This document shows, in pieces, positions 271 to 17,536 of a stretch of 42,128 nucleotides of DNA. The translations under genes were made by a program, and so were the position numbers. The notes below the pieces were generated by a model that was not told the origin of the DNA, ran no database searches, and saw only the letters and a list, made by a program, of their open reading frames with translations. Location: IMG/VR virus record IMGVR_UViG_2744054914_000003, one strand, 5' to 3'. The first letter of the stretch is position 1. Each line of letters begins with the position of its first letter. The DNA is from a virus. Lineage: Duplodnaviria; Heunggongvirae; Uroviricota; Caudoviricetes.

Positions 271-475
271 TTACCGTTAAATCATTTTAAAATCAGTAAG
301 TTGTATCGAGTTTGTATGCTTTACTGTCATTAACTTACTGTATGTTGATCCAGTGTATTTAACCTTGATAAACTCAGTCCAGCAACACAAAACCGCAACA
401 CATTGCATTTTGTCCCGTAGAAAAGACTTGTATGTGTGAGCTTGTTTTCTGCGCCTACGCAGATAAGGATTGAGA

Positions 476-1873: not shown

Positions 1874-2070
1874 TACCGGCTGCGACACTTTTGAATAAAA
1901 GCGTCGACATTGCGGCGCTCATAACGAACTACTTTTGCACTGAAACGAATTGGTGCCAGGATAGCCCGATGACGATGCTTAATATTCCACTCACATAGCG
2001 TTTTCTGTGTAATACCTAACTTTTGGCATACTTCATCCGGGGTGAGTAAATCGTCGGGTTTCTCGCTCAT
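1870..2070 (-). CDS. AlpA/excisionase-like small DNA-binding protein
   Basis: 66-aa ORF with helix-turn-helix-like segment (LLTPDEVCQKLGITQKTLCEW), typical of AlpA/Xis-family proteins beside integrases. Confidence 0.6.
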   Translation of the reverse strand: MSEKPDDLLTPDEVCQKLGITQKTLCEWNIKHRHRAILAPIRFSAKVVRYERRNVDAFIQKCRSRY

Positions 2071-3464
2071 GCTATACCTCTCTTTTTCATGGCATCGAGC
2101 AGGATGTCCTGCACTGTTCGTTTTGAGTTGCGCCGCTCCATCACCATTTCGTCCATAGTGTCGGCAGCAATAATGTGGTGAATAAATACCGGACGATTGT
2201 GTCCGGCCTGTATCTGCCTGGTGGGGCCGATACGTTCAATAATTTGCTGATATTGCTCCAGGTCCCACCAGTGTGAGAAAAATACCAGTATATTTCCGCC
2301 GTCCTGCATGTTCAGGCCGTGGCCCGCGCTGGCTGGGTGTGCAAAGAGAACAGGAATCTTTCCGGAATTCCAGTCGCGCAGTGTCTGTGGATCCTGGTCG
2401 AGGTGACGACCGCGAGGGAATGCTTTAAGCAAGCGTTCAAGATCGTGTTTCCAGTGATAAGCAACCAGCACAGGTGCGCCAGCTGCTTCGGTCAGTATGC
2501 TGTCCAGCGCCTGTAGTTTGGTGTCATGCAGTTCTGACCAACTTCCGGTGTCGTCTGTGTATACTGCGCCACTGGCGATTTGAAGACACTTCAGTGTCTT
2601 TGCCGCGGCGTTCGGTGCTTCGATGCCTTCGCCATTCAGCTCGAGGAACATTTCCTTTTCCATTTCACGATACTGCTGACGGGCCTTCGGCGGCATATCC
2701 ACGCGGATTACGTTATGGATGGGGTCTTTGATATCGAACCAGTCGGCCGCATCTAGCGAGAGGGTCACATCGGCTAATGCTCGCTGTATTTCACCCTGTG
2801 AGTGAGCAAAAGGCTCCAGTTTAGTCCAGCTCTGTCCCGGAAACTGTATCGAGTTGAACCAGCGTGAGGTAAACGCACCGTAAGTGCGCCCGAGACGTTG
2901 CCCTTGGTCCACAAACCACGATTGTCCCCACAAATCTACCAGGCCGTTCGGTGCTGGCGTACCGGTGAGATTTATCCAGCGCCGGACATACTTATGCGCC
3001 ACTTTGCCCAGTGCCGCCGCGCGCTTACCACCACCTCGCAGCCGGAAGGATTTTAGCCGGGTGCTTTCATCTGGAATGACAATACCGAACGGCCATCGTT
3101 CTCCCAATTCTTCAACCAGCCAGACAAGGTTATCGTAGTTGATGGTGAACACGCTTGCGTTGCTGTTCGCCAGCGCCGTAGAGCGCGCTTTGGCATTACC
3201 AACAATCGGCTGCACCTCGATATTGCGCAAATGCCCCCACTTCACTGCTTCATCCGGCCAGGTGTTTGCTGCAACACGTAGCGGCGCGAGGACCAGTGCG
3301 GGGCGTGTTTCTGCCCCTGCCATAAAAAGATCTTCCAGCGCAGTGAGCGTTGCCACGGTTTTACCCATTCCCATACCTGCCCAGATGTTGCAGCGCATAA
3401 TGTCGATTTGATGATTGATGATGAGATCTTGGTAGGGGTGAGGTGAAAATATAGCATAGTCCAT
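2067..3464 (-). CDS. SNF2-family (DEAD/DEAH-box) helicase
   Basis: Walker A GMGMGKT and DExx box (VIPDESTRLKS); ATG at 3464 preceded by GGAGAT; belongs to the recalled phage module DUF2800/DUF2815/PolA/VRR-NUC/SNF2. Confidence 0.8.
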   Translation of the reverse strand: MDYAIFSPHPYQDLIINHQIDIMRCNIWAGMGMGKTVATLTALEDLFMAGAETRPALVLAPLRVAANTWPDEAVKWGHLRNIEVQPIVGNAKARSTALANSNASVFTINYDNLVWLVEELGERWPFGIVIPDESTRLKSFRLRGGGKRAAALGKVAHKYVRRWINLTGTPAPNGLVDLWGQSWFVDQGQRLGRTYGAFTSRWFNSIQFPGQSWTKLEPFAHSQGEIQRALADVTLSLDAADWFDIKDPIHNVIRVDMPPKARQQYREMEKEMFLELNGEGIEAPNAAAKTLKCLQIASGAVYTDDTGSWSELHDTKLQALDSILTEAAGAPVLVAYHWKHDLERLLKAFPRGRHLDQDPQTLRDWNSGKIPVLFAHPASAGHGLNMQDGGNILVFFSHWWDLEQYQQIIERIGPTRQIQAGHNRPVFIHHIIAADTMDEMVMERRNSKRTVQDILLDAMKKRGIA

Positions 3465-3531
3465 GGTATTGTATCTCCATGAATGAACTTATGTAGTAAT
3501 AGCTTAATTATTTATTTCGAAAGGAACAGTT

Positions 3532-4410
3532 ATGACCTCAGCTTATACAGATGTCCAGCAAGAAGAAAATATTACTGATAAATTAGTTGTTAAATATGAT
3601 GGTCCCGCACTAGCAGATCATAAAATAGATTTGGATGTTTTAACTGAGTCATTGAATGGACTAAACAACTTGCTTAAAGAAGTTAATTTGGTTGTCAATG
3701 GCACTAGTGAGTGTATTAATGTTGAGGTTGAGCCTTTTAAGGAAGGCTCATTTGAGTATTTGATTGATGTTATTCAAAATCCACTTGACCATTTGAATAT
3801 ATTAAGCATTATTGGGCTTGGAGGTACAACTGCACTCGCAGCAGGAAATACTCTCATTGACTTAATTCGTCAGATCAATGGTAGGCAAATAAAACGGTTG
3901 ACTTTAACAGCGGAAGGAGACTGTAAAATAGTTATGGATGATGGTGAGGAAATTATAGCCCCGTCATATTTCCGGCCTTTACTTGCCTCACCAAGCATAC
4001 GCAAATCCTTATCGAAGTTAATTCATAATCCTTTGCAAAAGGAAGGATACGAATCGCTTAAAATTTCAACTCAACAGGGGGTTGAGCTGATTAAGGTGCA
4101 CGAAGATAATATTGAACCGTTCAGATATAGGCGCGTTCCTGTAGTGCAGTCCTTGTCTGAAAGGGTGATTGAAGAGGCTCTAATCACATTTTTGACTATT
4201 CATAAGGATAAAAACACAGGCTGGCGAGTCAACTATGGCGATGACACAATCAGCGTGTCTATAGAAGATACTGAGTTCTTACAACGTGTTAGTACGGGAA
4301 GAGAACCTGGTGTTTTTAGTGATGCTTACTGCGTTGATTTGCTCGTCCGTGAGAACTTGAATTCGCTGGACAAAACGTACATAGTTGTTAAAGTACACGG
4401 TATCTTATAG
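3532..4410 (+). CDS. Hypothetical soluble protein, gene 1 of AT-rich three-gene moron
   Basis: 292-aa ORF, ATG preceded by AAGGAACA; about 30-35% GC against >50% in flanking phage genes; no hydrophobic helix or catalytic motif recognised by eye. Confidence 0.6.
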   Translation: MTSAYTDVQQEENITDKLVVKYDGPALADHKIDLDVLTESLNGLNNLLKEVNLVVNGTSECINVEVEPFKEGSFEYLIDVIQNPLDHLNILSIIGLGGTTALAAGNTLIDLIRQINGRQIKRLTLTAEGDCKIVMDDGEEIIAPSYFRPLLASPSIRKSLSKLIHNPLQKEGYESLKISTQQGVELIKVHEDNIEPFRYRRVPVVQSLSERVIEEALITFLTIHKDKNTGWRVNYGDDTISVSIEDTEFLQRVSTGREPGVFSDAYCVDLLVRENLNSLDKTYIVVKVHGIL

Positions 4411-4433
4411 TAGATTCACATGGGGAGGGGGCT

Positions 4434-4682
4434 ATGATTGCTTTTGCTTTTTGGCTGGCTTTTTTTAGCCTGCTTCCCGTACTATATTGGGTTCTTAAGA
4501 TGGGGTTTGACCGGTTACGCTTTGCGCTTATGCCTAAACATCATCTTGTTCTTGAATGTGTTGACTCAGAAGGAGTTGTCCGTCGCGATGTCGTTGATGT
4601 CTCTTCTGATGATGAATTTTACAAAATTGCAATGAATGCCATTCGTGCTGGAAGATCAGTCAAAGGAGGGACGTTTGAGTAG
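4434..4682 (+). CDS. Small membrane protein, gene 2 of AT-rich moron
   Basis: 82-aa ORF, ATG preceded by GGGGAGGGGG; N-terminal hydrophobic helix (IAFAFWLAFFSLLPVLYWVL) then charged soluble tail; stop TAG at 4680-4682 overlaps next gene's start. Confidence 0.5.
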   Translation: MIAFAFWLAFFSLLPVLYWVLKMGFDRLRFALMPKHHLVLECVDSEGVVRRDVVDVSSDDEFYKIAMNAIRAGRSVKGGTFE

Positions 4683-5205
4683 CGCTTCTAAACCTGATAG
4701 CTACGAAAAAGTCCCTCTGATTTCTAATGTTGCTGCTGGTGGCATCACTGGTTTTTTAACATTACTGGTGTCCTCGTGGGACGGTCGTTTTCCGTATATT
4801 GGTTCTGATTTAAATACAATAAAGCCATTTCTTTTATTAATGCTTCCCAGTTGCGCTATGTTTCTGGCGCATTGGATAAAGTCGATTGGGTTTAAATGGT
4901 CCTTAGGTAGCGTTAATCGACAGTTATTAAGCATTAATAAGAAGAAAGAAAAAGAACTTCGCCGTGATATTGAAAAGTACAAAAATGTTATTTCTAATGA
5001 AAAGATAGAGGACTTTAAAAGTCAACTTGAACAAGTATTACAAGATCGTCATGATATTATTTCTAATAATTACGCACAGAAACTAAGAGAAAGAAATTAT
5101 ACGCAAGAAAAATATCATGAGCATAAACAAACCGCTGCAAATGATAATATTGAGCTGCAAAGCATACTGGAGAATCAGAAGTTCAATCAAAAAGGCATTG
5201 ACTAA
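4675..5205 (+). CDS. Membrane protein with two hydrophobic helices and K/E-rich coiled-coil C-terminus, gene 3 of AT-rich moron
   Basis: In-frame TTG at 4675 lies 5 nt after strong AAGGAGGG and overlaps gene 2 stop by 8 nt; alternative ATG at 4636 lacks a ribosome-binding site. Hydrophobic segments (VAAGGITGFLTLLVSSW; FLLLMLPSCAMFLAHWI). Confidence 0.5.
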   Translation: MSSASKPDSYEKVPLISNVAAGGITGFLTLLVSSWDGRFPYIGSDLNTIKPFLLLMLPSCAMFLAHWIKSIGFKWSLGSVNRQLLSINKKKEKELRRDIEKYKNVISNEKIEDFKSQLEQVLQDRHDIISNNYAQKLRERNYTQEKYHEHKQTAANDNIELQSILENQKFNQKGID

Positions 5206-5209
5206 ATTT

Positions 5210-5479
5210 TTATAATATCCTCTCTAGGTTCTTGCTATCCAGCACCACTACGGTAAAGCCCAGTTTTCGCAGACGTTCATGTTCGCGCAATTGGTCAGGC
5301 CGTGGTGGCTTGCCGGGAGATTTACATTCAACGAAAACGATACGACCACCTGGTAGCAGGACAATGCGATCCGGTACCGAGCGGTGACCGGGAGATACAA
5401 ACTTAAAGGCCACTCCGCCAGCTTTTTTCACTTCAGCGACGAGGTGCTTTTCGATAAGGCTTTCACGTTCATAGGCCAT
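5210..5479 (-). CDS. VRR-NUC domain nuclease
   Basis: PD-(D/E)xK-like motif (DRIVLL ... VFVECKSPG); longest ORF extends to 5506 but start at MAYERESL is more plausible. Confidence 0.7.
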   Translation of the reverse strand: MAYERESLIEKHLVAEVKKAGGVAFKFVSPGHRSVPDRIVLLPGGRIVFVECKSPGKPPRPDQLREHERLRKLGFTVVVLDSKNLERIL

Positions 5480-5768
5480 CTGAATCCCACTCTTCAAAAA
5501 GCACATTCAATTCCAGTTTCTCTGCCAACGCGTTTTCTGCACGTGCGCCAGCAGAGTACTCCCACTCTTTGAGCATATAAATCGTATCGGCACAGCGAAG
5601 CATTGCGAGGCAGATGTCCATATACTGAGCCTGTGTCAAACCATTGGGTAAAGTTGCGGGGTTAAGCACAACATATCCCTTGTCCGTTAGCCTCTTTGCT
5701 GCGGAATGAAAAGCCGGGCGGTTAAATTGCTCGTAACCGCTCATCGGCCCGGCAACGTAAACGATCAT
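5469..5768 (-). CDS. DUF4406-like (nucleoside 2-deoxyribosyltransferase-like) phage protein
   Basis: 99-aa ORF with N-terminal VYVAGPMSG motif recalled for this family; ATG at 5768. Confidence 0.55.
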   Translation of the reverse strand: MIVYVAGPMSGYEQFNRPAFHSAAKRLTDKGYVVLNPATLPNGLTQAQYMDICLAMLRCADTIYMLKEWEYSAGARAENALAEKLELNVLFEEWDSDGL

Positions 5769-5980
5769 TCTTCGACCGCCTTACGCTTTTCACGCATATT
5801 CTGCATCAGGCAAAAATCAGATCTGCGTTCACTCCATTCCTGATTCAGTTCGTGATGTGATTCGCGGTTGGCTTTTGCCCAGACCTTCGCTGCCCGGTCA
5901 TATTCGCCGGATTGTTCAAGTCGCAAAGCCTCCCTTGCAGCCCTGTAATAAAGTGGATTGTCCCGGTATTTAAATGACAT
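5765..5980 (-). CDS. Small hypothetical phage protein
   Basis: 71-aa ORF tightly packed between the polymerase and DUF4406-like genes, with overlapping stop/start. Confidence 0.4.
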   Translation of the reverse strand: MSFKYRDNPLYYRAAREALRLEQSGEYDRAAKVWAKANRESHHELNQEWSERRSDFCLMQNMREKRKAVEE

Positions 5981-5985
5981 AGGAG

Positions 5986-8049
5986 TTAATCCTTACGGTA
6001 GTGGTACGCCTCAAAACCGCCAGCGTTCAGTGGGATATCTGGCGCCCATTCGGGGTTAGTGGAGAGAAGCGCGGAAAGCGCTTTATCGTTGAAATCTTCT
6101 GTGTCAGGTGATTCGGTGATCACCTCGTCGTGTACCGTCAGCACAATGCTGTAACCGGCATCTTCGATAAGCGGCATGTTTCCGGCCAGAACGTCGCGGG
6201 CGGCCGCCTGGGTGACGTTCTCCACCAGCTTTCCGCCGTAGGTTTTGAGTCGTTGCCATTTACGCGAATAAGAGTTAACACCCATGTAGGTGATATTCCC
6301 TTGTTCGATAACCGGAGACGGGTAGCATACAGCGCGTCCGGATGGTAGCTGTATGCGCAGCCACGCGCCATCGCGGCGGATTTTAAGATAACCGCAATAC
6401 AATGTTTTTTGCGGTGTGGCGATTGCTGTGCGGACGGTGCACTCCAGTTCGTACCAGAAATCACAGGTCGCGGGATGCGCCCGGCGCCAGAGACGTTTAA
6501 GTGAGTCGCAGGCGATAAATACCCGTTCAGAAAGCCCGTAGGTCGATTTACGTTTAACCGATTCGTCGTACCAGCTTTTCGCCTCGCGGATAACATCGCG
6601 GGGAATGTTTGGCAGTGCGGCGTTCGCCAGCCCGTCGAGATCGAGACCGTAAACCAGAGCAAAAGTGATGAAAGCCGATACACCTCCTCCATAACCCAGA
6701 CCGAGTTCCATGACTTTACCGATCTGACGCATGTGTTTATCAACATCATCTGGTGCAATATCGAAAGCTTTTGCATACGCCAGTTTATATAAGTCCGGAC
6801 CCGTTCCGGCGTCGTACTCTCTGAATGCATTCAGTTTCCATTCTTCTCCCGCCAGCCATGCCAGCATACGGCCTTCAATGTTCGACAAGTCACTTACCAC
6901 CAGCTTTTTGCCTGTTGGCGCGATAATGCAGCCACGTAACGCTGAACTGGTTAGTTCCATGATATTGTCAAACAGCAGGTCTGCACATCCGGCTTTCAGT
7001 GCTTCGATGCCTTCGTCTATTTGTTCCTGTTTTAGTGAAGGGCGGGGAAGGTTCTGGGGCTGGAATAGCCGTCCGGCCCAACGACCGGTACGTGACGCCC
7101 CGCAGAACTGTAGCGTACCGCGTAAGCGCCCGTCGTGGCTTACGCCTTTCATCAGTGCCTTGTATTTACTGGTGCTGGTAGTACTGGCCTGCAGGCGGAT
7201 AGCCAGCAGTTCTTTCACGGCAGATGGTAAATCGGGGTCGGCAATACGACGTTCCAGAGTACTGCGTTGCATGTCTGGTAGCTCCACACCGTAGGATTCA
7301 ACAATGTGCTTAATCAACGCGTCTCGTTGTGTGGCTGCCTGCACTTCGCCATCAGTCATTTCCTGTGTACGCTTTGCCAGGCGCTTTTGTTCCTGGTCTA
7401 CCGCGTCGATCGCAGCGCGTGCGAGTTCCACGTCCATGCAGACGCCCCGGTCATTGATCTGCTGATCACGATGCCAGAGCGCCAGTTCTGTCCCCTGATA
7501 ATTCCACTTCGGCAGACGTTTATAGACTTCGCGCATTGCCTCGATATCCAGTCCGGCGTAAGCAACAAAGCGCCGCCATTCTTCCGGGTGGGTTTTGCTG
7601 GTGGCCCGGCGCAGTTTGCTGTTTTTCGGGCGTGGCTTACAGAACAGCTGGATCAGCGCTTTACCTTCTTTGTCCTTCGCTTTGTCTTGCGGGACGCCTA
7701 GTACTTCGCAGAGTTCCCCCAGAGACCCCGGGAGACCGTGCGCCAGCGCCTGCACCATCGTGTCGCGCCAACGTTCGACTGGCGGTGCCAGTCGCGGCAT
7801 TGCATAACGCAGGACGGTGCGGTCGAAGTGAGAGTTATGAAAATAAAGCAGGGTTTCAGGGGCTGCGATTGCTTCGTATAAGCCGTGTGGAATACCACCA
7901 CCGGCAGTGATATCCCATACGTTTACTGGCCCGTCGTTGATAGCCCATGCGAACAGCATCACTTCAACGCCTTCGGCATACGCATGGGTACCGTTCGTAA
8001 TAGGGATTTCGCAATAGGTTTCCAGGTCGCCCCATAGTATATTGGACAT
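5986..8049 (-). CDS. Family-A DNA polymerase (3'-5' exonuclease plus polymerase domains)
   Basis: 687-aa ORF; exonuclease motif DLETY near N-terminus, polymerase motif A-like ([13 protein letters not shown]) and motif C (VHDEV). Confidence 0.85.
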
Positions 8050-8095
8050 GTGTTTACCTTGGTTTTTATTCTATTAACTGATTAAAAGATTAATT

Positions 8096-8725
8096 ATGCA
8101 TATGATCCAATACTTGATTGACCATACAGAGCATCTGGAGAAAATAGCTGGATATATTTTTTCATGTTTGATTGTTATGGGAGTCTGGATAAGAAAGATC
8201 ATTTTTAATTATAAGTATAAAGAGCCTAAATATGTCAAGAAGTTAATTTTATATTTAGTTAAGTATGAACGTTATCTGGATAAGGAGGATAAGAGTGCCA
8301 TAGAAAAAAGAATAAATGATAAAATTATTCGTGATGCGCTGAAATTGCAATCTTCTTATAACCGAAGTGATGTTATTTACATTTGCAATAGATTAGAAAA
8401 AAGACAGTATATAAATCAGGTGATTAAGCTTCAGAATTATATAGAGAAAGATAACGGAGTGTTTTTCATCAATGTTAATTTTTCAGGTTTTTTATTTATT
8501 ATTAGTCGTCTGTTTTCCTTTCTGTGTTTTGTGCTGTTTATCCTTTTTTCTATTATCTGCATTATTTCCATAGGGCAAAATGAAGGCCTTTTAAATTATC
8601 TTGTGTATATGGTTATGACAATAGTTTTAGAGACTGTTGGTTTTTGGATGTATGATACTTTCCCGTCTAAGAAGAAGATCTGTGAACTAAATAAAGAATT
8701 GAGGAAGATTAAGATTCCTGAGTGA
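8096..8725 (+). CDS. Hypothetical membrane protein (AT-rich moron, opposite strand to the replication operon)
   Basis: 209-aa ORF in strongly AT-rich DNA between two minus-strand replication genes; hydrophobic segments at N-terminus and C-terminal third (FLFIISRLFSFLCFVLFILFSIICIISIG; LVYMVMTIVLETVGFWMY). Confidence 0.5.
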   Translation: MHMIQYLIDHTEHLEKIAGYIFSCLIVMGVWIRKIIFNYKYKEPKYVKKLILYLVKYERYLDKEDKSAIEKRINDKIIRDALKLQSSYNRSDVIYICNRLEKRQYINQVIKLQNYIEKDNGVFFINVNFSGFLFIISRLFSFLCFVLFILFSIICIISIGQNEGLLNYLVYMVMTIVLETVGFWMYDTFPSKKKICELNKELRKIKIPE

Positions 8726-8743
8726 TTATACGCCTAATCAGCA

Positions 8744-8762
8744 GCCCGGTATTTAACCGGGC
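8744..8762. terminator. Hairpin between convergent genes (possible bidirectional terminator, no clear U-tract)
   Basis: GCCCGGT-ATTTA-ACCGGGC, 7-bp stem, between the 8725 stop (+) and the 8778 stop (-). Confidence 0.3.
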
Positions 8763-8777
8763 GTCTATGAAGTAGGG

Positions 8778-9326
8778 TTAAATCAGTGCTTCAGCATCAG
8801 CACCTTCGCTGATATCGTCGAAATCGTCAGCGCTTGCCACTCCGCCGCCAGCGAATGCATCGCCGTCTCGCAGGAACTGGACTCCGCCGAGTGAGGCATT
8901 AATGCGTTTACCGAAATTATTGTCCTGTGCCCAGATATCGATAACGGCGTTTACATAGCACCCTGCATAGGGACGTCCATCAGCCTGAATAAGTGGCGAA
9001 CGATCGCGATCAAGAACAGCTGGGCGCGCTTTGTTAGCAGCATTCAGGAAGAAATTGCCGGGGAAGCCTTCATACTCTGCTTTTTCATCACCATCATGCA
9101 GGCACAGATTGAGTTTTTTCTCCAGTTGGTTATAAATGGGCTCCCACTTCTCTCCCCATTTTTCCTTCGCTACCTGCTTCATAGCTTTACGGATTTCTTC
9201 CAGTTGTGGGTGTTTGGGTGACATTAAAAATACTGCGGAGAAACGTGGATCGCCTTCGCCGTTTACAGTTTTAGCTTCAAACAGAGACGGGAAGGCCAGA
9301 CGAACATTGTTCAGCTTCAGTTTCAT
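8778..9326 (-). CDS. DUF2815-like phage protein (SSB-like, as recalled)
   Basis: 182-aa ORF with acidic C-terminal tail (DDFDDISEGADAEALI); sits between DUF2800-like and polymerase genes as in the recalled module. Confidence 0.6.
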   Translation of the reverse strand: MKLKLNNVRLAFPSLFEAKTVNGEGDPRFSAVFLMSPKHPQLEEIRKAMKQVAKEKWGEKWEPIYNQLEKKLNLCLHDGDEKAEYEGFPGNFFLNAANKARPAVLDRDRSPLIQADGRPYAGCYVNAVIDIWAQDNNFGKRINASLGGVQFLRDGDAFAGGGVASADDFDDISEGADAEALI

Positions 9327-9341
9327 GGGTATTTCCTTAAA

Positions 9342-10643
9342 TCAGATGAGGTCTGCGGTTAGCGTATCGTCGGATACGTCGTCGAAATCATTTACAGGGT
9401 TGATATTGAGTGCGGGGCGTGGGTCTGACTCGGGAACGATGGTGGGTTTACCATCAGCTCGTGTTATCAGTGCCTCGACTTTTGACCAACGGCGCGGACT
9501 GGCCTTTTTGATAAGTTTTTCGGCTTTTGTGGGGCTAATAAGTTTAAAGTCGAATACTTCTTCAGTTTTGTACCTGAACTGGTCCTTCAGAAGTGCGCGA
9601 GCTGCCTCTTCATCACTCCAGGCCCGGTTACCTTGTTTTCCTGTTACCAGTTTAAACCCCGGTACCGGATGTCCGGCATTGAGTTCATTGTGAACCCGGT
9701 CTCGTACTGCCTTTAGCCAGGATTCAATAAAGTCGGCCTGGCTATAGATCTCCGCAAGCTGCTCAATGGTTAACAGAGGTACACGTGCGCTGGCATTGGA
9801 GATTATTTCGCTGACAGGCTTTGTCAGATCTTCAAAATCGCTGGCCGCTGTTTGTAAATGCTGCATTTTCTGGGCAGTGCAAATAGCTTTTGCTTTACAG
9901 AAGCGGCACTGTTTTTCTCCAGGTATGAAGTTTTCCAGCGGTAGTGTCTCAATGCCTTCGCATTCAGCAATATTGAGAACAAGGATCGCACTGGTTGCGG
10001 CCTCCAGTGCCCGTTCACCGAAAGACTGAAGTTCCTGTACGGTTAACGACCATTCTGAAACGTGGTTGAGCCTTGGCTGGTGAATAAATAATCTTACAGT
10101 CTCAAAGTCATACAGCATGCTGAATTGTTCGAGCGCACCCAGAGCATACAGTTGTAGTTGCTCATTTTGTTCTGCATCAATGCGGACGCCTTTGCCATAT
10201 TTCAGGTCGTGGATTTGTAATTCGCTACCAGCAATGATTATGCCGTCGGCAGTTCCGAAAGATTCTTCCACACCCGTTATATGTGAGAAATCAACACGTT
10301 GTTCAACCAATAGTTCATTATTCTGTGCAAGAGTCCAGACCGTATCAACATACCGGCCAACGGCTTCGACCATTTCATCATCCACCTGTGGGCCAGATGT
10401 ATCATCAGGATTTTCGCGAAGGGGGTATGAGCCGAGAAACATAGAAACATTGCATCCGGCGTAGTGTTCCGGGTAGCTTTGCCTGTTTCGTAGAACTTTT
10501 TCAGCAAGCGCGTGCGCTGCAGTGCCCTCGATTGCAAAAGTTGTTTCTTTATCCGGTTGTGTGGCCTCCAGCGCCAGACTTCCTGGGCAGCGCATCCATC
10601 GATGCGCTGATGATGGAGAAAGTTGTGCATGAACGTCTGGCAT
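9342..10643 (-). CDS. DUF2800-like PD-(D/E)xK nuclease (Cas4-like)
   Basis: 433-aa ORF with N-terminal [15 protein letters not shown] motif and C-terminal cysteine cluster ([10 protein letters not shown]). Confidence 0.65.
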
Positions 10644-10645
10644 GA

Positions 10646-11548
10646 TTAACCCTCCAGTGCTTTTTCAGCCAGGGTGATTACTTCAGCGAGATTTTCATCC
10701 GTTACTTCACCAAGTTTCCTGGCTCCCTGTTTTTCCAGAATTGCAATAGCTTCTGCCCGGTAACCCCCTTTTGCTAACTGGAGGATCAACCCTTCAGCTT
10801 GTTTGCGTAGTGCCGCGAAATCAATTGTATGGTCATCTTTGGCGTCATGATTCTGGCTGGAATTTGCTGCGTCTCTGCGTGCAAATTCTTCTTGCAGCTG
10901 AAGGTACTCAACACGGTTGATCTCGATATGGCCTTTTTTCAGCATCTCGTTCAACTTGCGTAAGGTGTGGAGTTCACTGGCTGCTGTGCCGGATACATTT
11001 TTGACGTAAAACGGCCCCGTGCGTTCTCCATCTTTGTTACTGGCCTTTTTCGGCTTAACTTCATCACGCCCATCCGCAGGTGCATCAAGTAGCTGCTCGG
11101 CAAAAACACGTCGCTCGCCGATGGTTGGCAGGTCGTCCCAGAACTTAAGGATGTTACGGGACAGGTCCAGGAGAGCAGGTTTAAGCAGCGCCCTGGCTCG
11201 TTTGACGCCCTGCAATGCGCTGTCGAGAGCATCAATCTGAACTACTCGTTTATCGCCTTCAGCATCACGGTAGGCAACAGCACGTTGCAGCATGTCTTCT
11301 GTGATAGGGGTGGCTACCGGGTAGAAACCAGCCAGTGCGATAACGTCGCTGAACTCCAGATCATCCAGTGTCATTGCCGCTGACATATTTTCAGTTTCAG
11401 TTGCTGTATCCCGACATTCCTGCACTCGTGAAATCGTGTCAGGATGCATAACAATGCCTGATGCCATTGTGCGGATAAGACGTTCAAGCAGCGCATTATG
11501 TTGTGCCAGAAGTTGATTATTAAGTTCGAGACTGGTTTCTAAACTCAT
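10646..11548 (-). CDS. Hypothetical early phage protein
   Basis: 300-aa ORF, same strand and contiguous with the replication module; no motif recognised. Confidence 0.45.
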
Positions 11549-12861: not shown

Positions 12862-13536
12862 TTAGTACATACGTAGCGCGGATTTGGCGATCCCCGCCAC
12901 GTAATGGATTTTTTCAATGTTTTCGCGTGGTACTCTGACTGGTGGATGATCTTCATTTACAGACATTAGATGGAACAGGCCATCGCGTTCGAACAAGAAG
13001 GTTTTAACCATGACCTCACCTTCCCGGGTAACCACAAGTACTTCATCACCAGGAGTGTAGTCGTGGTTGGGTTCGACGATTACGAACTCCCCCTCTTTGA
13101 TTCTAGGCATCATTGAATCACCAACACATTTCAGGGCGTATGCATCTTCATCCTTTGTCGGCCAGTATATGAAACCATCACTGCTACCTACTGAATATTG
13201 GGTGTCGCTCCAAAGTCCTCCAACGCCTAGCTGAGTGTTTCCCAAAACAGGTACTTTATTAAACCTAAGAGAAATATACGTTTTTATACCTGTCGCGTCC
13301 TCTTTCTCCAGTTCTTGAAGGCTCCTTTCTGCCAAGTCTATTGGTGACACGTGGAAGTAGTCGGCGATCTGCTTTAACGTTGCGTATTTCGGATCTTTCA
13401 CCTCTCCTGATACCAGCCTGTGTAGCGTTGGTTGGTTCAGCTGTAACCGACGTGCCAGCTCAGTTATCGAGCTTATCTTGGCTTTGTCCATCAGGTACTT
13501 GATGTTTTGAGAAAGGATATCGGTAGTATCAATCAT
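12862..13536 (-). CDS. cI: CI-like phage repressor (HTH N-terminus, S24 LexA-like peptidase C-terminus)
   Basis: 224-aa ORF; HTH region (SITELARRLQLNQPTLHRLVSG); S24-type domain with Ser (GDSM) and Lys (VMVKTF) regions; divergent from a cro-like gene. Confidence 0.85.
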   Translation of the reverse strand: MIDTTDILSQNIKYLMDKAKISSITELARRLQLNQPTLHRLVSGEVKDPKYATLKQIADYFHVSPIDLAERSLQELEKEDATGIKTYISLRFNKVPVLGNTQLGVGGLWSDTQYSVGSSDGFIYWPTKDEDAYALKCVGDSMMPRIKEGEFVIVEPNHDYTPGDEVLVVTREGEVMVKTFLFERDGLFHLMSVNEDHPPVRVPRENIEKIHYVAGIAKSALRMY

Positions 13537-13677
13537 TTGGATTCATCCATGTTGTATACAGGGACGGTGATTATGCGTTATCGGATATTTTAATCTAGGA
13601 TGACATAGAATTGCTGTATTGCTGAGTAATCCGTTTTCGTATAAATTTGCGCTATAGACGAAAGTGGAGACTTAAAT
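13537..13677. promoter_or_regulatory. Divergent promoter/operator region between repressor and cro (PRM/PR-like)
   Basis: 141-bp AT-rich intergenic region between divergent HTH regulator genes, with short palindromes (TGTATACA; TTTCGT...ACGAAA). Confidence 0.5.
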
Positions 13678-13878
13678 ATGTCCGGACTAACACCACAAGA
13701 GATGGTCAAAAGCTTGATTGATTCAGGGTATACCCAAAACCAAATTGCCGAAATTGCAGGCGTGAAGCAGTCTTCTATTAGTCGGCTTCTTACCGGGGTT
13801 CATTCTGACCCTCGCTTTTCTACAGTACGTGCGATAGAAAAACTTTTTCAGGAAGTGACAGCTAGACAAAAGGTGTAA
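13678..13878 (+). CDS. cro: Cro-like HTH regulator
   Basis: 66-aa ORF with HTH (YTQNQIAEIAGVKQSSISRLL), first gene of rightward early operon. Confidence 0.7.
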   Translation: MSGLTPQEMVKSLIDSGYTQNQIAEIAGVKQSSISRLLTGVHSDPRFSTVRAIEKLFQEVTARQKV

Positions 13879-13881
13879 CCC

Positions 13882-16068
13882 ATGTCCGATAGCAAACCAT
13901 GGGGAGCTACGCCTGATGAGTGGTTTCATTTCGACCTGGTATTGGGGCGGACTGCTCATCTTCTCCCAGTTGTATGTAACCCCAGTGCGACCATATCCCC
14001 TGATAGTAAATTGAAAGCGTTGGGTAAGACGCCGAGTCGCTATAACCGGGACCGCCAGGTCACAGGTATTGCTCAATGGACCGGGCATGTTGTTACTGAG
14101 CATGATTTTGCCCGCTGGTCGAATGAACCGGATTATGGCATCTGCGTGCGTACAGGCCATGGCTGGCTGGCGCTGGACTGCGATAGCGAAGATGAAGACA
14201 TTCAGGCAGATATTCGCAAAACACTTGTGCAACTTCTGGGTGAGTCGCCGCCGCGACGCTGGCGAGCAAACAGTAATAAGTGTCTGTATCTGCTGGCCGT
14301 TGATGGTGATTTCCGTAAGCGTATCCATCGCCTGGCGGGGGATATGGGCATTATCGAGTTGCTGGCGAACGGGCAGCAGTTCGTTGCCTGTGGTACGCAC
14401 AGCAGCGGCGCGCGTATTGAATGGGACGGTGGTTTGCCGGATGAACCTCCGGCTATTACAGGTGAGCAGCTTGAAACGCTGTGGCAGCGCCTGGCTGAAC
14501 AACTCCCTGTGTCGGTAACCACCGAAGCGGGCAACACGAAGATGCGCGACCGTTCAGCATTCACGCCCGGCGCGACGGATGATACAGCTGAATATCTTGA
14601 TGCCAATGGCTGGACGCTGCTGGATGGCGCAAACGGTGAACGATATATCCGCTGTCCGTTTGAAGACGGCCACAGTAGCGGAGGCGATCCAACAAGCACA
14701 GTTTATTTTCCTGCGGGAACCGCAGGCTTTGAGCAGGGGCATTTTAAATGCCTGCATGCCAGTTGCGCGCATCGTGATGACGGAGATTTCCTGAATGCCA
14801 TCGGGATCCGCAACGACGATTTCGAAGATCTGACCAGCATCGAAGTGGCGGAACCTTTACCGCTGCCTGCTTTCGAGCGTGATAAATGGGGGCGTATCGA
14901 GGCAACCATCAGCAATGCAGCCAAAGCAGTAGTACGCTCTGATTTTGTGGACATCGATATTCGCTTTGACCAGTTCCGCGACGAAATCATGTTTGCCCCG
15001 GCAGGATCCGGACAATGGCGGGCATTCACCGATGCGGATTATGCGCGCCTGCGCATCACGATGGAAAAGCGGGGATTTAAACCTGTTGGCCGTGAACTTA
15101 TTCGCGATGTGGTGTTACTTGCAGCCGATGAACAACCATTCGATTCAGCGATCACCTGGCTGAACGGACTGGAGTGGGATGGCGTGCCGCGCATCGAATG
15201 TTTCTACCATACGCACTTCGGTACCGCCGACACGCCTTATACCCGTGCGGTGTCTATGTACATGTGGACCGCGTTGGCGGGGCGAGTACTGGAGCCAGGC
15301 ATCAAAGCGGATATGGTGCCGATCCTCGTTGGTCCGCAGGGCTGCGGTAAGTCTTCCGGAGTGGAGGCACTGAGCCCTGATCCTGCGTTTTTTACTGAAA
15401 TCTCTTTTGCCGAAAAAGACGATGATCTCGCTCGAAAAATGCGTGGTCGGCTGGTGGCAGAGATTGGTGAACTGCGCGGACTTAATACCAAAGAGCTGGA
15501 GTCAATCAAAGCGTTTGTGACGCGTACTCACGAAAACTGGATCCCGAAATACCGGGAGTTCGCCACCCAGTTTCCTCGTCGCCTGGTGTTCGTTGGTACC
15601 ACTAATGAGGACGAATTCCTTGCGGACAAGACTGGTAACCGTCGCTGGCTCCCCGTGGAAGTGTCGAAAGTCGACGTGAAAGCGATAAAAAGAGATCTCC
15701 TTTTACTTTGGGCTGAGGCTCGTGAGGTGTTTCAGCGTCTGGGGGGTATCCAGTTCCGTGAGGCTGAACAACTGGCAGCGAGTGTCCATGAACAGTACAC
15801 CATCAAGGATGCTTGGCTTGAAACGGTAGAGAAATGGCTCGACACGCCCGACCTGATGACTAATGAACTTCCGCGAAATTGCGAATTTTTACGCGCAAGT
15901 GATGTTTTGCGTGATGCGATTGGGCTAAATCCTGACCGCATCGGAAAACGCGAAGAAATGCGAATTAGTAATGTTTTGCAAAATTGCGGGTATAAGCGTG
16001 CCCAAAGGCGAATTGGGGGGAAAAAATGCAAGGTTTGGGAACCGCTGGAACCACGCGGAACCACCTAG
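13882..16068 (+). CDS. Replication initiator: Prim-Pol-type primase fused to P-loop NTPase (VirE/D5-like helicase)
   Basis: 728-aa ORF; Walker A (LVGPQGCGKSS) in C-terminal half; N-terminal half with acidic Prim-Pol-like motifs; iterons overlap its 3' end. Confidence 0.75.
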   Translation: MSDSKPWGATPDEWFHFDLVLGRTAHLLPVVCNPSATISPDSKLKALGKTPSRYNRDRQVTGIAQWTGHVVTEHDFARWSNEPDYGICVRTGHGWLALDCDSEDEDIQADIRKTLVQLLGESPPRRWRANSNKCLYLLAVDGDFRKRIHRLAGDMGIIELLANGQQFVACGTHSSGARIEWDGGLPDEPPAITGEQLETLWQRLAEQLPVSVTTEAGNTKMRDRSAFTPGATDDTAEYLDANGWTLLDGANGERYIRCPFEDGHSSGGDPTSTVYFPAGTAGFEQGHFKCLHASCAHRDDGDFLNAIGIRNDDFEDLTSIEVAEPLPLPAFERDKWGRIEATISNAAKAVVRSDFVDIDIRFDQFRDEIMFAPAGSGQWRAFTDADYARLRITMEKRGFKPVGRELIRDVVLLAADEQPFDSAITWLNGLEWDGVPRIECFYHTHFGTADTPYTRAVSMYMWTALAGRVLEPGIKADMVPILVGPQGCGKSSGVEALSPDPAFFTEISFAEKDDDLARKMRGRLVAEIGELRGLNTKELESIKAFVTRTHENWIPKYREFATQFPRRLVFVGTTNEDEFLADKTGNRRWLPVEVSKVDVKAIKRDLLLLWAEAREVFQRLGGIQFREAEQLAASVHEQYTIKDAWLETVEKWLDTPDLMTNELPRNCEFLRASDVLRDAIGLNPDRIGKREEMRISNVLQNCGYKRAQRRIGGKKCKVWEPLEPRGTT

Positions 16069-16227
16069 AAGAGAAGGTGGTTCCACCTTGCAGACCTTGT
16101 GGCAAGCGGGGCGGAACTACTGGAACCACTGGAACCGCCTTTCTACTAGAAACCCCATATATATATATAAGTCGATTGAGGGAAAGGTTAGGAAAAGGTG
16201 GTTCCAGGTGGGGGCAGGTGGTTCCAC
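16038..16227. repeat. Iteron-type replication origin: about 9 copies of GGAACC(A/G)C in both orientations around an (AT)n tract
   Basis: GGAACCAC/GTGGTTCC copies starting at 16047, 16057, 16077, 16123, 16198 and 16218, with variants at 16038, 16114 and 16132; ATATATATATATA at 16157-16170; overlaps and follows the 3' end of the initiator gene. Confidence 0.6.
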
Positions 16228-16356
16228 TCCGAATTAGCAACTTTTTGCATGTTGATACATGCAATATGCGGATCGGAACTGCGTTATCCACACCCACGGA
16301 TAAACAGACGTAGTTCTCAGAAAAATTTTTCGTAGCAAAACGTAGAGGTCAGAGCT

Positions 16357-16791
16357 ATGCGTAATATTCAACAGGTTTTAGAGCGCTGGGGTGGATGGGC
16401 TGCCGATAGCAACACCACAGTGAGCTGGGCTCCAATAGCGGCGGGATTTAAAGGGCTGGTAGTCAGCAGCTCGCCTGGCAGGCTGAGTTGCTGTGACGAC
16501 GATGGCCTGATTATCGATGCTTGCGTCTGTCGGCTGCAGCAGGTCCGTAAGCCTGAGGAACTGGACGTCATTATGCTGTACTACGTCTACGGGTTAAGCA
16601 AACGTGAGATAGGGCGGCGGCGTCGCTGTTCTGAAGGATTTATCCGCCAGCAGTTGCAGGTAGCAGAGGGATTCATTGAGGGGTGTCTCTGCATGCTGGG
16701 TGTGAGCCTTCAGATGGATCCTGAGGTCGAAATTCAAAGGGATGAAAAAAGTATTAGTGCGCTACGCAAAAACTGCGCTACGCTGGTATGA
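16357..16791 (+). CDS. Q-like late antiterminator
   Basis: 144-aa ORF; N-terminus (MRNIQQVLERWGGWAA...AGFKGL...CCDDD) resembles Q proteins of lambdoid E. coli prophages as I recall them; immediately upstream of the lysis cassette. Confidence 0.65.
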   Translation: MRNIQQVLERWGGWAADSNTTVSWAPIAAGFKGLVVSSSPGRLSCCDDDGLIIDACVCRLQQVRKPEELDVIMLYYVYGLSKREIGRRRRCSEGFIRQQLQVAEGFIEGCLCMLGVSLQMDPEVEIQRDEKSISALRKNCATLV

Positions 16792-17070
16792 GTTGAATTT
16801 CTGACCTCAACGAAGAGCTCCAAATCATTGGGGCTTTTTTAATGCTCTATTCTCAGTAAAAGTTAATAAAACAGGGTTTTCGTCGCGAAAAAACGCTATG
16901 CAGTTTTTGCCCTTTTTTATGCACCTCTTATTCACTCGAATTTCGTCATTCTGGACCACTTAAGTTGATTAAATAGGCCTTTCATCGCAAATCTATTGCG
17001 AGCGGTGATCGTGTGGTTCCTATAACATACATTATGTTAAATAACTTCCTTTTTTAACAAATTTAACAAG

Positions 17071-17093
17071 GTTCGCTATGGCGAACTTTTTTT
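17071..17093 (+). terminator. Rho-independent terminator, candidate tR' (late-operon terminator subject to Q antitermination)
   Basis: GTTCGC-TATG-GCGAAC perfect 6-bp stem followed by TTTTTTT, about 280 bp after Q and about 100 bp before the holin. Confidence 0.55.
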
Positions 17094-17194
17094 GTATTCA
17101 GGGCCCACCGAAGGACGGCTCATAACCCAATCCTACGGGCGTATACGCAGGGCCCGCCTTTCAACAACACCCCGTAATGGCGGAGGTGGGAAGT

Positions 17195-17536
17195 ATGAAA
17201 ATGCACAATGCTCCTCATTCCTGGCCTGACTTACTGGAACTCTTACAAAGTTGGTGGCGTGGAGATACGCCGTTGGGCGCAGTGGTTATGTCAATTGTTA
17301 TGGCTGGCTTGCGCATTGCCTATTTTGGCGGTGGCGGCGGCTGGAAACGAAAAACGCTTGAGATTTTGCTCTGTGGTGCTCTGACGCTGACCTTTGCATC
17401 CGCTCTTGAGTATGTTGGATGGCCTAAATCGCTTTCTGTTGCCATTGGTGGTGGTGTTGGGCTGATCGGTGTGGATGCTATTCGTGGGGCTGCAATGCGA
17501 GTAATCGGTAACAAGTTTGGTGGCTCTAAGGAGTAA
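17195..17536 (+). CDS. Holin (lambda S-like, dual-start MKM motif)
   Basis: GGAGGTGGG precedes ATG-AAA-ATG (MKM) like lambda S107/S105; hydrophobic helices; longest ORF begins at 17177. Confidence 0.7.
   Translation: MKMHNAPHSWPDLLELLQSWWRGDTPLGAVVMSIVMAGLRIAYFGGGGGWKRKTLEILLCGALTLTFASALEYVGWPKSLSVAIGGGVGLIGVDAIRGAAMRVIGNKFGGSKE

Follow-up and report, generated by a model that had tools for sequence, protein, structure and literature searches.

A probable iteron replication origin at the 3' end of the primase-helicase gene in a prophage family of Proteobacteria

A cluster of short repeats at the end of a primase-helicase gene very probably forms the lytic replication origin of the prophage that carries it, and would be recognised by the protein encoded just upstream. 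We base this assignment on the sequence anatomy, homology, predicted fold, layout conservation and iteron-hairpin co-variation computed here for the window, by which we mean the whole 42,128-bp stretch of DNA that was analysed, and its relatives. Phage and plasmid origins commonly consist of iterons and an AT-rich unwinding element in or near the initiator gene, and iteron origins that lie next to an initiator of matched specificity are textbook knowledge. A previous sequence-only reading had proposed such an iteron origin, bound by the adjacent initiator. At the level of sequence, every computational test turned out as this proposal predicts; the evidence comprises initiator homology, a predicted winged helix, a conserved layout and co-variation between iteron and hairpin.

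Initiator gene and repeat cluster

The features of the region are as follows.

13882-16068, plus strand: initiator gene for a 728-aa primase-helicase with a prim-pol-type primase N-terminus, a VapE/SF3 helicase (aa 427-639) and a predicted C-terminal winged helix
15946-16044, plus strand: predicted recognition helix (aa 689-701) and beta-hairpin wing (strands aa 704-711 and 714-721)
16038-16066, plus strand: left outer iteron array, three direct copies (GGAACCGC, GGAACCAC, GGAACCACCT) at 9- and 10-bp spacing
16075-16084, minus strand: inverted iteron AGGTGGTTCC, paired head to head with 16057-16066 (perfect over 10 bp, 8 bp between the two)
16113-16140, plus strand: left inner iteron array, three direct copies (GGAACTAC, GGAACCAC, GGAACCGCCT) at 9-bp spacing, directed toward the AT tract
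16141-16195, no strand: conserved spacer and putative unwinding element, CTTTCTACTAGAAACCCCAT(AT)nAAGTCGATTGAGGGAAAGGTTAGGAAAAG
16196-16225, minus strand: right iteron array, tandem 10-mers (AGGTGGTTCC, the degenerate AGGTGGGGGC, AGGTGGTTCC), directed toward the AT tract
16240-16266, plus strand: T-rich stretch with a TTGCA ... TGCAA motif (ACTTTTTGCATGTTGATACATGCAATA), an inverted pair beside the origin

The adjacent gene had been called a primase-helicase initiator, and this call was confirmed: the protein combines a prim-pol domain with an SF3 (VapE) helicase and is homologous to the Rep initiators of SaPIs. It matches the VapE-like Pfam family PF05272 (E 2.4e-60) and DNA helicase/primase families of PHROGs, and close homologs carry the Prim-Pol domain PF09250. 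When the PDB was searched with phmmer, the closest solved structure was 7PDS (SaPI1 Rep), with an E-value of 7.5e-34 over aa 393-657. [quoted passage not shown] Among homologs, the recognition helix (aa 689-701) is conserved, with mostly about 0-0.5 bits of entropy and 1.2-1.3 bits at two positions. The wing is hypervariable, with entropy peaks at aa 715-716 (2.5-2.9 bits) and also at 707-708 and 712. We propose that helix and wing together are the part of the initiator that reads the iterons. A homolog search with only the C-terminal 142 aa returned 21 fragmentary proteins, and the full-length query was needed.

Exact copies of GGAACCRC occur 11 times in the window, compared to 2.41 ± 1.41 times in dinucleotide shuffles, none of which (0 of 100) reached 11. 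Eight of these copies lie inside 16038-16225, against an expectation of 2.4 for the whole 42 kb; they start at 16038, 16047, 16057, 16122 and 16131 on the plus strand, and at 16077, 16198 and 16218 on the minus strand. First-order Markov simulations of the window (n = 300) gave at most two copies per 190-bp stretch, as against the eight observed, and the cluster ranks first among all clusters of repeated 8-mers in the window. Together with a one-mismatch copy on the plus strand (GGAACTAC at 16113) and a degenerate iteron (AGGTGGGGGC, 16206-16215) in 10-bp register between both right-hand copies, there are ten iteron sites in total. The earlier count of about nine GGAACC(A/G)C copies in both orientations within 190 bp is thus accurate. 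The remaining exact copies (14716, 17013 and 25210) are isolated and at chance level; neither a second GGAACCRC cluster nor any other origin candidate was found in the 42-kb window. A further one-mismatch copy at 16275 (GGAACTGC) is not counted among the iterons, since it does not change in relatives in which the repeats have taken on another sequence.

The open reading frame 13882-16068 ends with the stop codon TAG at 16066-16068; its last 10 codons and the stop are thus overlapped by the first three copies, just as the sequence-only reading had placed the start of the repeats. That reading had also described the repeats as flanking an alternating AT tract. Indeed, copies in both orientations surround a 13-nt (AT) tract, ATATATATATATA, located at 16157-16169 inside the spacer. 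None of the 42,113 positions has a less stable 15-bp duplex than this tract, which locally is also the least stable at 20, 30 and 50 bp. At 16185-16194 there is a constant half-site containing AGGT, which keeps phase with the right-hand iterons: the start-to-start spacing of AGGT is 11, 10 and 10 bp.

The motif at 16240-16266 accompanies the origin regardless of the downstream gene. Motifs of the TTGCA ... TGCAA type were seen at most of the loci listed, and a stricter TTTGC[AG] form in 29 of 75 distinct regions (background, 0.11 per 160 nt); it is uncertain whether the motif is part of the origin. A DnaA-dependent origin was considered as well. The sole perfect DnaA box of the window (16284-16292) is lost in relatives beyond the closest group, and for this reason it was excluded from the origin.

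Conserved layout and co-variation of iteron and wing

The same layout was found directly 3' of the homologous gene at about 170 loci of Gamma-, Beta- and Alphaproteobacteria and their phages. These loci were collected from genomes, IMG/VR and metagenomes, and the layout was present in nearly all of those with enough flanking sequence. The shared order is stop codon, inverted copy, direct copies, AT-rich centre and inverted copies. It holds from 100% down to about 33% identity of the C-terminal domain, across three proteobacterial classes, and is seen in Yersinia phage YeP4, APSE-1, Caulobacter phage Jess A and Acidovorax phage ACF1. The repeated 8-mer is specific to the locus, and 16 classes were counted before the metagenome loci supplied more. 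In the left outer array the positions are conserved and the sequence switches; the right array has two to four good copies. The convergent pair at the stop codon was also found in APSE-1, YeP4 and three further loci (L004, L012 and L013). The spacer is nearly invariant among loci with different iterons, and its GGGAAAGGTT core is kept in Burkholderiales relatives at about 50% protein identity.

Among complete E. coli genomes, 67 of 5,426 (about 1%) carry this prophage family. All strong matches to the origin listed in these genomes (at least 94% identity over the full 206 bp) adjoin a VapE gene, and no orphan copies, as might be expected of satellites borrowing the initiator, were present among them. 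In the records of relatives that we examined, the site is unannotated or has been given a doubtful ORF. A comparative-genomics paper on APSE placed the origin by a skew program alone, and our literature search found no paper combining "VapE" and "iterons".

We compared the iteron with the wing at each locus. Of 383 pairs of loci that share the wing 7-mer, 377 also agree in the iteron, and in 343 pairs with at least 97% identity over the first 660 aa both wing and iteron differ. Over its first 690 aa, the protein of four loci (L038-L040 and L097) shares about 99% identity with that of the window, yet its wing reads GKMTRIF, as against GKKCKVW with GGAACCAC in the window, and GTACCAAC occupies every iteron position, while the rest of the scaffold is unchanged. 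GKMTRIF is paired with GTACCAAC, and GKMTRIW with GTACCCAC. Iterons of the GGAACCAC type were found with at least three unrelated repressor/Cro types and with at least four Q types or no Q, indicating that the iterons track the initiator and not the regulators. As far as sequence comparison can tell, the iteron word co-varies with the C-terminal beta-hairpin and nothing else nearby, and the specificity of the iterons appears matched to the cognate initiator.

Two related ideas were rejected. The repeats do not behave as operators: GGAACCRC is absent between cI and cro (13537-13677), and the class of iteron does not depend on the type of repressor or Cro. A recognition code of one residue to one base was not supported either; W or F as the last wing residue tends to be accompanied by C or A, respectively, at iteron position 6, with exceptions such as APSE-1, L169 and L098. 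It is possible, and we suggest it only tentatively, that the wing (the last ~15 residues of the winged helix, above all aa 707-708 and 715-719) constitutes, together with the full set of iterons, an exchangeable specificity cassette.

Alternative explanations for the repeats

The repeats might be a regulatory array instead of an origin; bound by the primase-helicase or another phage protein, they would control read-through from the early operon into Q, the late regulator downstream, as a roadblock or timer, or mediate autoregulation of the initiator. When 13400-17300 was scanned for promoters and terminators, nothing was detected inside 16038-16356, and the array can thus be discounted as a recognisable promoter or intrinsic terminator. 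Placed between the early operon and Q and lacking any such site itself, it must be crossed by transcription of Q. The overlap of the outer cluster with the stop codon would fit this explanation, and so would the fact that iteron arrays of plasmids often serve as regulatory sites too. However, the array follows the primase-helicase gene whether the downstream gene is Q or not, and opposed arrays around an easily melted AT tract are what an origin needs, not a roadblock. Moreover, the window offers no other origin candidate, and regulation could coexist with origin function instead of replacing it. We consider it unlikely that the array is regulatory and not an origin. It is very unlikely that the repeats serve as an incompatibility, copy-control or partition site (by titration, by handcuffing or as a centromere) and that the true origin lies elsewhere, as in the ori and crr arrangement of P4. 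The alpha protein of P4 does bind repeats at two separate cis elements (PMC6092414), and the left outer cluster described here has no AT-rich partner of its own. In the 42-kb prophage, however, a second repeat cluster is absent and the other three exact copies stand alone, no partition genes were found among the ~20 ORFs of the window that were scanned, and the inner arrays flank the least stable duplex.

Inverted repeats at the 3' end of a gene could also act through RNA or single-stranded DNA structure, as a terminator, an antitermination element or a stabiliser of the mRNA. The 206-nt region, taken as single-stranded DNA, folds better than its shuffles (z -4.3), and there is a perfect 10-bp stem with an 8-nt loop at the stop codon. 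Nevertheless, the stems lack a T-run, the terminator scan was negative here, and an Rfam scan of 15500-17300 (E ≤ 1) gave no match in the region. Direct repeats at helical spacing would add nothing to a hairpin, and the co-variation is with a hairpin of the protein: all copies become the same word, with no compensatory pairing. We regard a structural role as highly improbable. Likewise, we give hardly any credence to the idea that the repeats are functionless products of slippage or recombination, and that their co-variation with the wing reflects physical linkage alone. The wing codons and the iterons are contiguous and are therefore inherited together, as this idea demands. But eight to ten sites over 190 bp share one word at each locus and differ between loci, the DNA between the sites is conserved, and the layout persists to about 33% identity of the C-terminal domain in three proteobacterial classes; this combination requires selection on every site.

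Proposed mechanism and comparison with known replicons

Taking the cluster as the origin, we infer how binding, melting, loading and firing may proceed. Judging from gene order, derepression would start the early rightward transcript, which would yield Cro and the primase-helicase. The C-terminal winged-helix domain of the latter would bind the 10-bp iterons, its conserved recognition helix probably reading the constant 3' half (ACCT) and its hypervariable beta-hairpin probably reading the variable 5' half (GGAACC). Because the inner arrays face each other across the spacer, helicase hexamers may be loaded in opposite orientations at the (AT) tract, which would melt first, as described for the self-loading Rep helicases of SaPIs. 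The prim-pol domain would then prime synthesis, and the family-A DNA polymerase and the Enc34-type single-strand-binding protein of the prophage would elongate. The outer cluster at the stop codon (three direct copies, one inverted) probably serves as an array for auxiliary or regulatory binding.

An analogy with the lambda origin had been drawn in the sequence-only reading. It is apt in that the origin lies in or next to the initiator gene; it is less so in that only three repeats overlap the gene, and the Rep-ori system of SaPIs and PICIs is closer. With lambda, the prophage shares iterons and an AT-rich region in or next to the initiator gene, an early rightward operon and a temperate lifestyle regulated by cI, Cro and Q. 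In lambdoid phages, too, iteron specificity co-varies with the DNA-binding domain of the initiator. In contrast, lambda ori lies in the middle of O, whereas here the overlap is confined to the last codons. The initiator described here is itself helicase and primase; O is no helicase and depends on P and the host DnaB. No lambda O or P homologs were found among the ORFs scanned. Iteron plasmids of the RepA, pi or TrfA kind have a Rep_3 initiator with a double winged helix and conserved DnaA boxes, and here the initiator is a helicase-primase.

SaPI origins consist of 6-12 iterons directly 3' of rep, at least two of them on each side of an AT-rich centre and the two sides in opposite orientation, and are bound by the C-terminal winged helix of Rep (PMC9371898). 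The prophage locus has the same elements: an SF3 initiator with a winged helix (here predicted), a 3' origin, opposed iterons within the range of 6-12, and specificity that appears matched. Both systems use a self-contained SF3 helicase as initiator, which ends in a winged helix and in SaPI5 is joined to a primase; the helicase domains are sequence-homologous (E 7.5e-34). The origin directly follows the gene (repeats at 16038-16225, stop codon at 16066-16068), and short iterons form two opposed sets around an AT-rich centre, here three plus-strand and three minus-strand copies. The iterons are matched to their own Rep in SaPIs, and concordance of wing and iteron suggests the same here. The differences are that the iterons are longer (8-10 bp, compared to 5-6 bp in SaPIs), that there is an extra outer cluster at the stop codon, that the short central spacer shows strong sequence conservation, and that the carrier is a complete temperate phage of a Gram-negative host, with DNA polymerase, SSB and structural genes, and not a satellite.

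Gram-negative PICIs resemble the prophage in their host (E. coli), in an origin that follows the primase/initiator gene and in two iteron sets flanking an AT-rich region; in EcCICFT073, an E. coli PICI, the pri-rep-ori segment drives plasmid replication (PMC6092414). Whereas a PICI is a helper-dependent satellite with no structural or lysis genes, the window extends from an integrase gene (470-1873) to the tail fibres, with lysis, terminase, head and tail genes in between. It is a full prophage, and its replicon is therefore PICI-like, yet not that of a PICI. P4 alpha and pRN1 ORF904 likewise unite primase, SF3 helicase and a C-terminal winged-helix origin-binding domain in one polypeptide (PMC2777425). 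Alpha differs by its DnaG-type primase, here of prim-pol type, and by its need for crr, a distant second cis element; no second, distant repeat cluster of this kind exists in the 42-kb window. In pRN1, the region 3' of the ORF904 gene is essential, although no iterons were found there (PMC2777425).

Conceptually, the probable origin adds no new principle; it is an unannotated example of a familiar design. It would place the replication origin of a prophage family to which the APSE phages of aphid symbionts and phages of Yersinia, Caulobacter and Acidovorax are related. The SaPI/PICI design, in which a self-loading helicase is combined with an iteron origin 3' of its gene, would thereby be extended to complete proteobacterial temperate phages. 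Lying between the early operon and Q, the array could also tie initiator occupancy to late-gene timing. The natural series of matched variants of initiator hairpin and iteron may be used for studies of winged-helix specificity and for building compatible replicons. If the wing and the iteron set do form an exchangeable cassette, a single scaffold would have given rise in nature to more than 25 initiator/origin pairs that are mutually orthogonal, in some cases one residue and one base apart (GKMTRIF/GTACCAAC and GKMTRIW/GTACCCAC). Such a cassette could supply ready-made orthogonal replicons, and in the cell it could prevent cross-firing among co-resident prophages and satellites.

Repeats at the end of the primase-helicase gene

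The motif GGAACC(A/G)C occurs as 11 exact copies in the 42,128-bp window, compared with 2.41 ± 1.41 expected from dinucleotide-preserving shuffles, and a count of 11 was reached in 0 of 100 shuffles. Eight of these copies lie within 16038-16225, the top-ranking repeated-8-mer cluster across the whole window; 300 first-order Markov simulations gave at most two per 190-bp stretch. With a one-mismatch and a degenerate copy added, the array agrees with the sequence-only reading of about nine copies in both orientations.

Iterons of the cluster
16038, 16047, 16057, 16122, 16131 (+): exact iterons, exact motif match
16077, 16198, 16218 (-): exact iterons, exact motif match
16113: one-mismatch iteron GGAACTAC, motif scan with mismatch
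16206-16215: degenerate iteron AGGTGGGGGC, in exact 10-bp register between two right-hand copies

The initiator ORF (13882-16068, 728 codons) ends with TAG at 16066-16068, so iterons 1-3 overlap with the final 10 codons and the stop. The repeats thus begin inside the gene and continue downstream, and they flank an alternating AT tract, both as previously read. This ATATATATATATA tract (16157-16169), with the inner arrays on either side, is the least stable 15-bp duplex among all 42,113 window positions and is still a local stability minimum at 20-50 bp. At the stop codon, the outer cluster of three direct copies with a perfect head-to-head partner is conserved and has no AT-rich partner; we interpret it as an array with an auxiliary or regulatory role.

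At 16185-16194, 11 bp ahead of the first right-hand iteron, AGGTTAGGAA has the constant iteron half, AGGT, and lacks the other. The AGGT starts of this element and the right-hand iterons are spaced 11, 10 and 10 bp and are in phase. Its conservation across iteron classes suggests that it is a generic half-site bordering the unwinding element.

A complete E. coli prophage makes up the window. Several E. coli chromosomes are 100% identical to it over the tested 1.2 kb and strain IAI1 is 99.4% identical; the IAI1 RefSeq record has no annotation in the intergenic region corresponding to the iterons.

Main features of the prophage
470-1873 (+): integrase
2067-3464 (-): SNF2-type helicase
5986-8049 (-): family-A DNA polymerase
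8778-9326 (-): Enc34-type SSB
9342-10643 (-): DUF2800 nuclease
12862-13536 (-): S24 cI-like repressor
13678-13878 (+): Cro-like HTH protein
13882-16068 (+): primase-helicase (probable initiator)
16069-16356: 288-bp gap with most of the repeats
16357-16791 (+): Q antiterminator

Downstream of Q lie genes for holin, endolysin, terminase, head and tail. The minus-strand block at 2067-11548, transcribed leftward, encodes much of the prophage's own replisome (SNF2-type helicase, DUF4406, family-A DNA polymerase, Enc34/DUF2815 SSB, DUF2800 PD-(D/E)XK nuclease and phrog_6784, a conserved protein of 300 aa with unknown function). The Q-holin interval (16792-17176) contains an isolated GGAACCAC copy at 17013-17020 (-) and a terminator-like hairpin with a T-run at 17068-17089 (+), which by analogy would fit a lambda-style late promoter and terminator as the Q target. 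Judged from annotations compared without alignment, the cargo slot at 3532-5205, from the integrase side to the polymerase gene, apparently differs from that of IAI1 (locus L001, 1-2333): in the window it contains two ORFs, one of 292 aa (weak DUF7946 match) and one of 189 aa (no Pfam match), and in IAI1 an ANR-family pseudogene and a protein with a TIR domain. The slot may be a variable defence or moron site.

Layout of the array in relatives

Initiator homologs directly followed by the same arrangement with another word were found in Yersinia phage YeP4 (AGACAACCT) and Hamiltonella phage APSE-1 (GTAACAACCT). Further homologous loci were gathered (22 genome, 80 IMG/VR and 78 metagenome), and the comparison also included Caulobacter phage Jess A and Acidovorax phage ACF1. 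Nearly all loci with enough flank hold 5-11 copies of a locus-specific 8-mer on one common scaffold: two to three direct copies at the stop codon, one inverted copy, two to three direct copies, an AT-rich centre and two to four inverted copies. Across loci, the iteron 3' end ACCT is nearly constant and the six 5' bases are variable. The spacer ACCCCAT(AT)nAAG...GGGAAAGGTTAGGAAAAG is kept between loci with differing iterons, and its core GGGAAAGGTT is retained in Burkholderiales relatives at ~50% protein identity.

Copy number ranges from 5 to 11 among prophages with near-identical initiators (L026-L105, L108-L146); locus L022 has 11 GGAACCAC copies, with an additional direct pair and an additional inverted copy upstream. 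In APSE-1 (L003, NC_000935), the annotated hypothetical protein 'P4' (3445-3666) lies inside the predicted origin, across the AT tract and right-hand iterons, and is probably not a real gene. Immediately right of the iterons (16240-16266, +), a T-rich stretch precedes TTGCA, and TGCAA comes ~10-12 bp further on, in the window as the palindrome TTGCATGT-N4-ACATGCAA. This motif is found in most listed loci, independent of downstream gene and iteron class, and relatives from Burkholderiales and Orbaceae have it too; it may serve in a promoter, in binding of a host factor or in priming.

Iteron word and initiator wing

Residues 427-639 of the initiator match Pfam VapE-like (E 2.4e-60), the protein matches PHROGs DNA helicase and DNA primase families, and its close homologs contain the Prim-Pol domain PF09250. 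The sole solved structure found by sequence was 7PDS (E 7.5e-34 over aa 393-657), the Rep helicase from staphylococcal island SaPI1 (PMC9371898). An AlphaFold2 model of aa 587-728, built from 34 sequences (mean pLDDT 73; 80-90 in the last 80 residues), has three helices and then a beta-hairpin (strands at aa 704-711 and 714-721). Over 55 distinct C-terminal homolog segments, the third helix (aa 689-701, KREEMRISNVLQN) varies very little, and entropy peaks in the hairpin at aa 715-716 (2.5-2.9 bits) and at 707-708 and 712 (~2 bits).

The iteron word tracks seven residues of the second hairpin strand, the wing motif.

Wing motifs and their iterons
GKKCKVW (also GKKSKVW, GKKCKLW, GKKCKIW, GKKRKVW): GGAACCAC
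GKMTRIF, GKVTRIF, GKMVRIF: GTACCAAC
GKKMRIF: GTCCCAAC
GKQQR(V/I)F: TAGACAAC
GKQIRVW: TAGACCAC
GKLMKVW: GTTACCAC
GKV(Q/L/C/S)(K/R)VW: GTAACCAC
GKMTKAW: GTAGCCAC

The iteron was identical in 377 of 383 same-wing locus pairs; the six exceptions are all GKVLKVW, with GTAACCAC or GTATCCAC, one base apart. Wing and iteron both differ in 343 pairs with at least 97% identity over the first 660 residues. The switch is clearest in four loci (L038-L040 and L097): the protein is ~99% identical to that of the window across the first 690 residues and the DNA is the same until the GGK codons; thereafter the wing is GKMTRIF and every iteron position reads GTACCAAC, with spacer and downstream flank unaltered. 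A metagenomic locus with GKMTRIW carries GTACCCAC, one residue and one base off the GKMTRIF/GTACCAAC pair. Ten separate sites have switched to one new word with the intervening DNA unchanged; linkage alone is insufficient for such a joint switch, which requires that every site was selected to fit a reader acting in trans. GGAACCAC iterons accompany at least three unrelated repressor/Cro types and Q proteins of 100%, 82-84%, 44% or 38% identity, or no Q, so the repeats go with the primase-helicase rather than with immunity or late control.

The final residues of the initiator are translated iterons: ...EPRGTT in the window (16057-16068), ...PVPTSK in relatives with GTACCAAC iterons and ...PVTT in those with GTAACxAC. 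In L037 and L086 the frame stays open across the iterons for another 8 codons. Disorder is predicted for this tail, which seems to be under little constraint.

Probable origin function and its alternatives

The repeat array is very probably an origin bound by the adjacent initiator. A pure regulatory roadblock ahead of Q is unlikely, because the array accompanies the primase-helicase whatever gene lies downstream. A terminator or RNA element is not supported; the inverted iterons themselves account for the good single-strand fold of the region (z -4.3). Nor is a P4-like split origin supported, since the 42-kb window holds no second GGAACC(A/G)C cluster. Dependence on DnaA could be read from the single perfect DnaA box of the window (TTATCCACA, 16284-16292, +), 59 bp right of the last iteron; however, only the closest relatives (L038 type) retain the box and more distant ones lack it, so its relevance to the origin is doubtful and a DnaA-dependent origin is not supported.

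For the initiator-bound origin, anatomy, homology, predicted fold, conservation and co-variation are shown by the analysis, and from these we infer binding and the following steps. The winged helix would bind the iterons, its conserved helix contacting ACCT and its hairpin the variable half. The inner arrays (16113-16140 and 16196-16225), which face each other, would set the orientation of two helicase assemblies on the conserved spacer, with melting starting at the (AT) tract. Priming would then fall to the prim-pol domain, and elongation to the polymerase and SSB of the prophage itself.

SaPI Rep proteins are described as working by this scheme. SaPI origins have 6-12 iterons directly 3' of rep around an AT-rich centre, at least two on each side in opposite directions, bound by the Rep C-terminal winged helix (PMC9371898). 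[quoted passage not shown] Every sequence-testable feature of a SaPI/PICI-type Rep-ori replicon was found in the window element. It is, however, part of a full prophage and not a satellite, so it would work like a PICI replicon without being a PICI. Lambda O-type, P4-type and plasmid Rep_3-type origins were also considered, and none fits. Our literature search, incomplete in coverage, returned no account of this origin in either APSE or the VapE prophages. The array is best regarded as an unannotated example of a known origin design, and the most interesting by-product is the large set of hairpin and iteron variants that match each other within a single scaffold.
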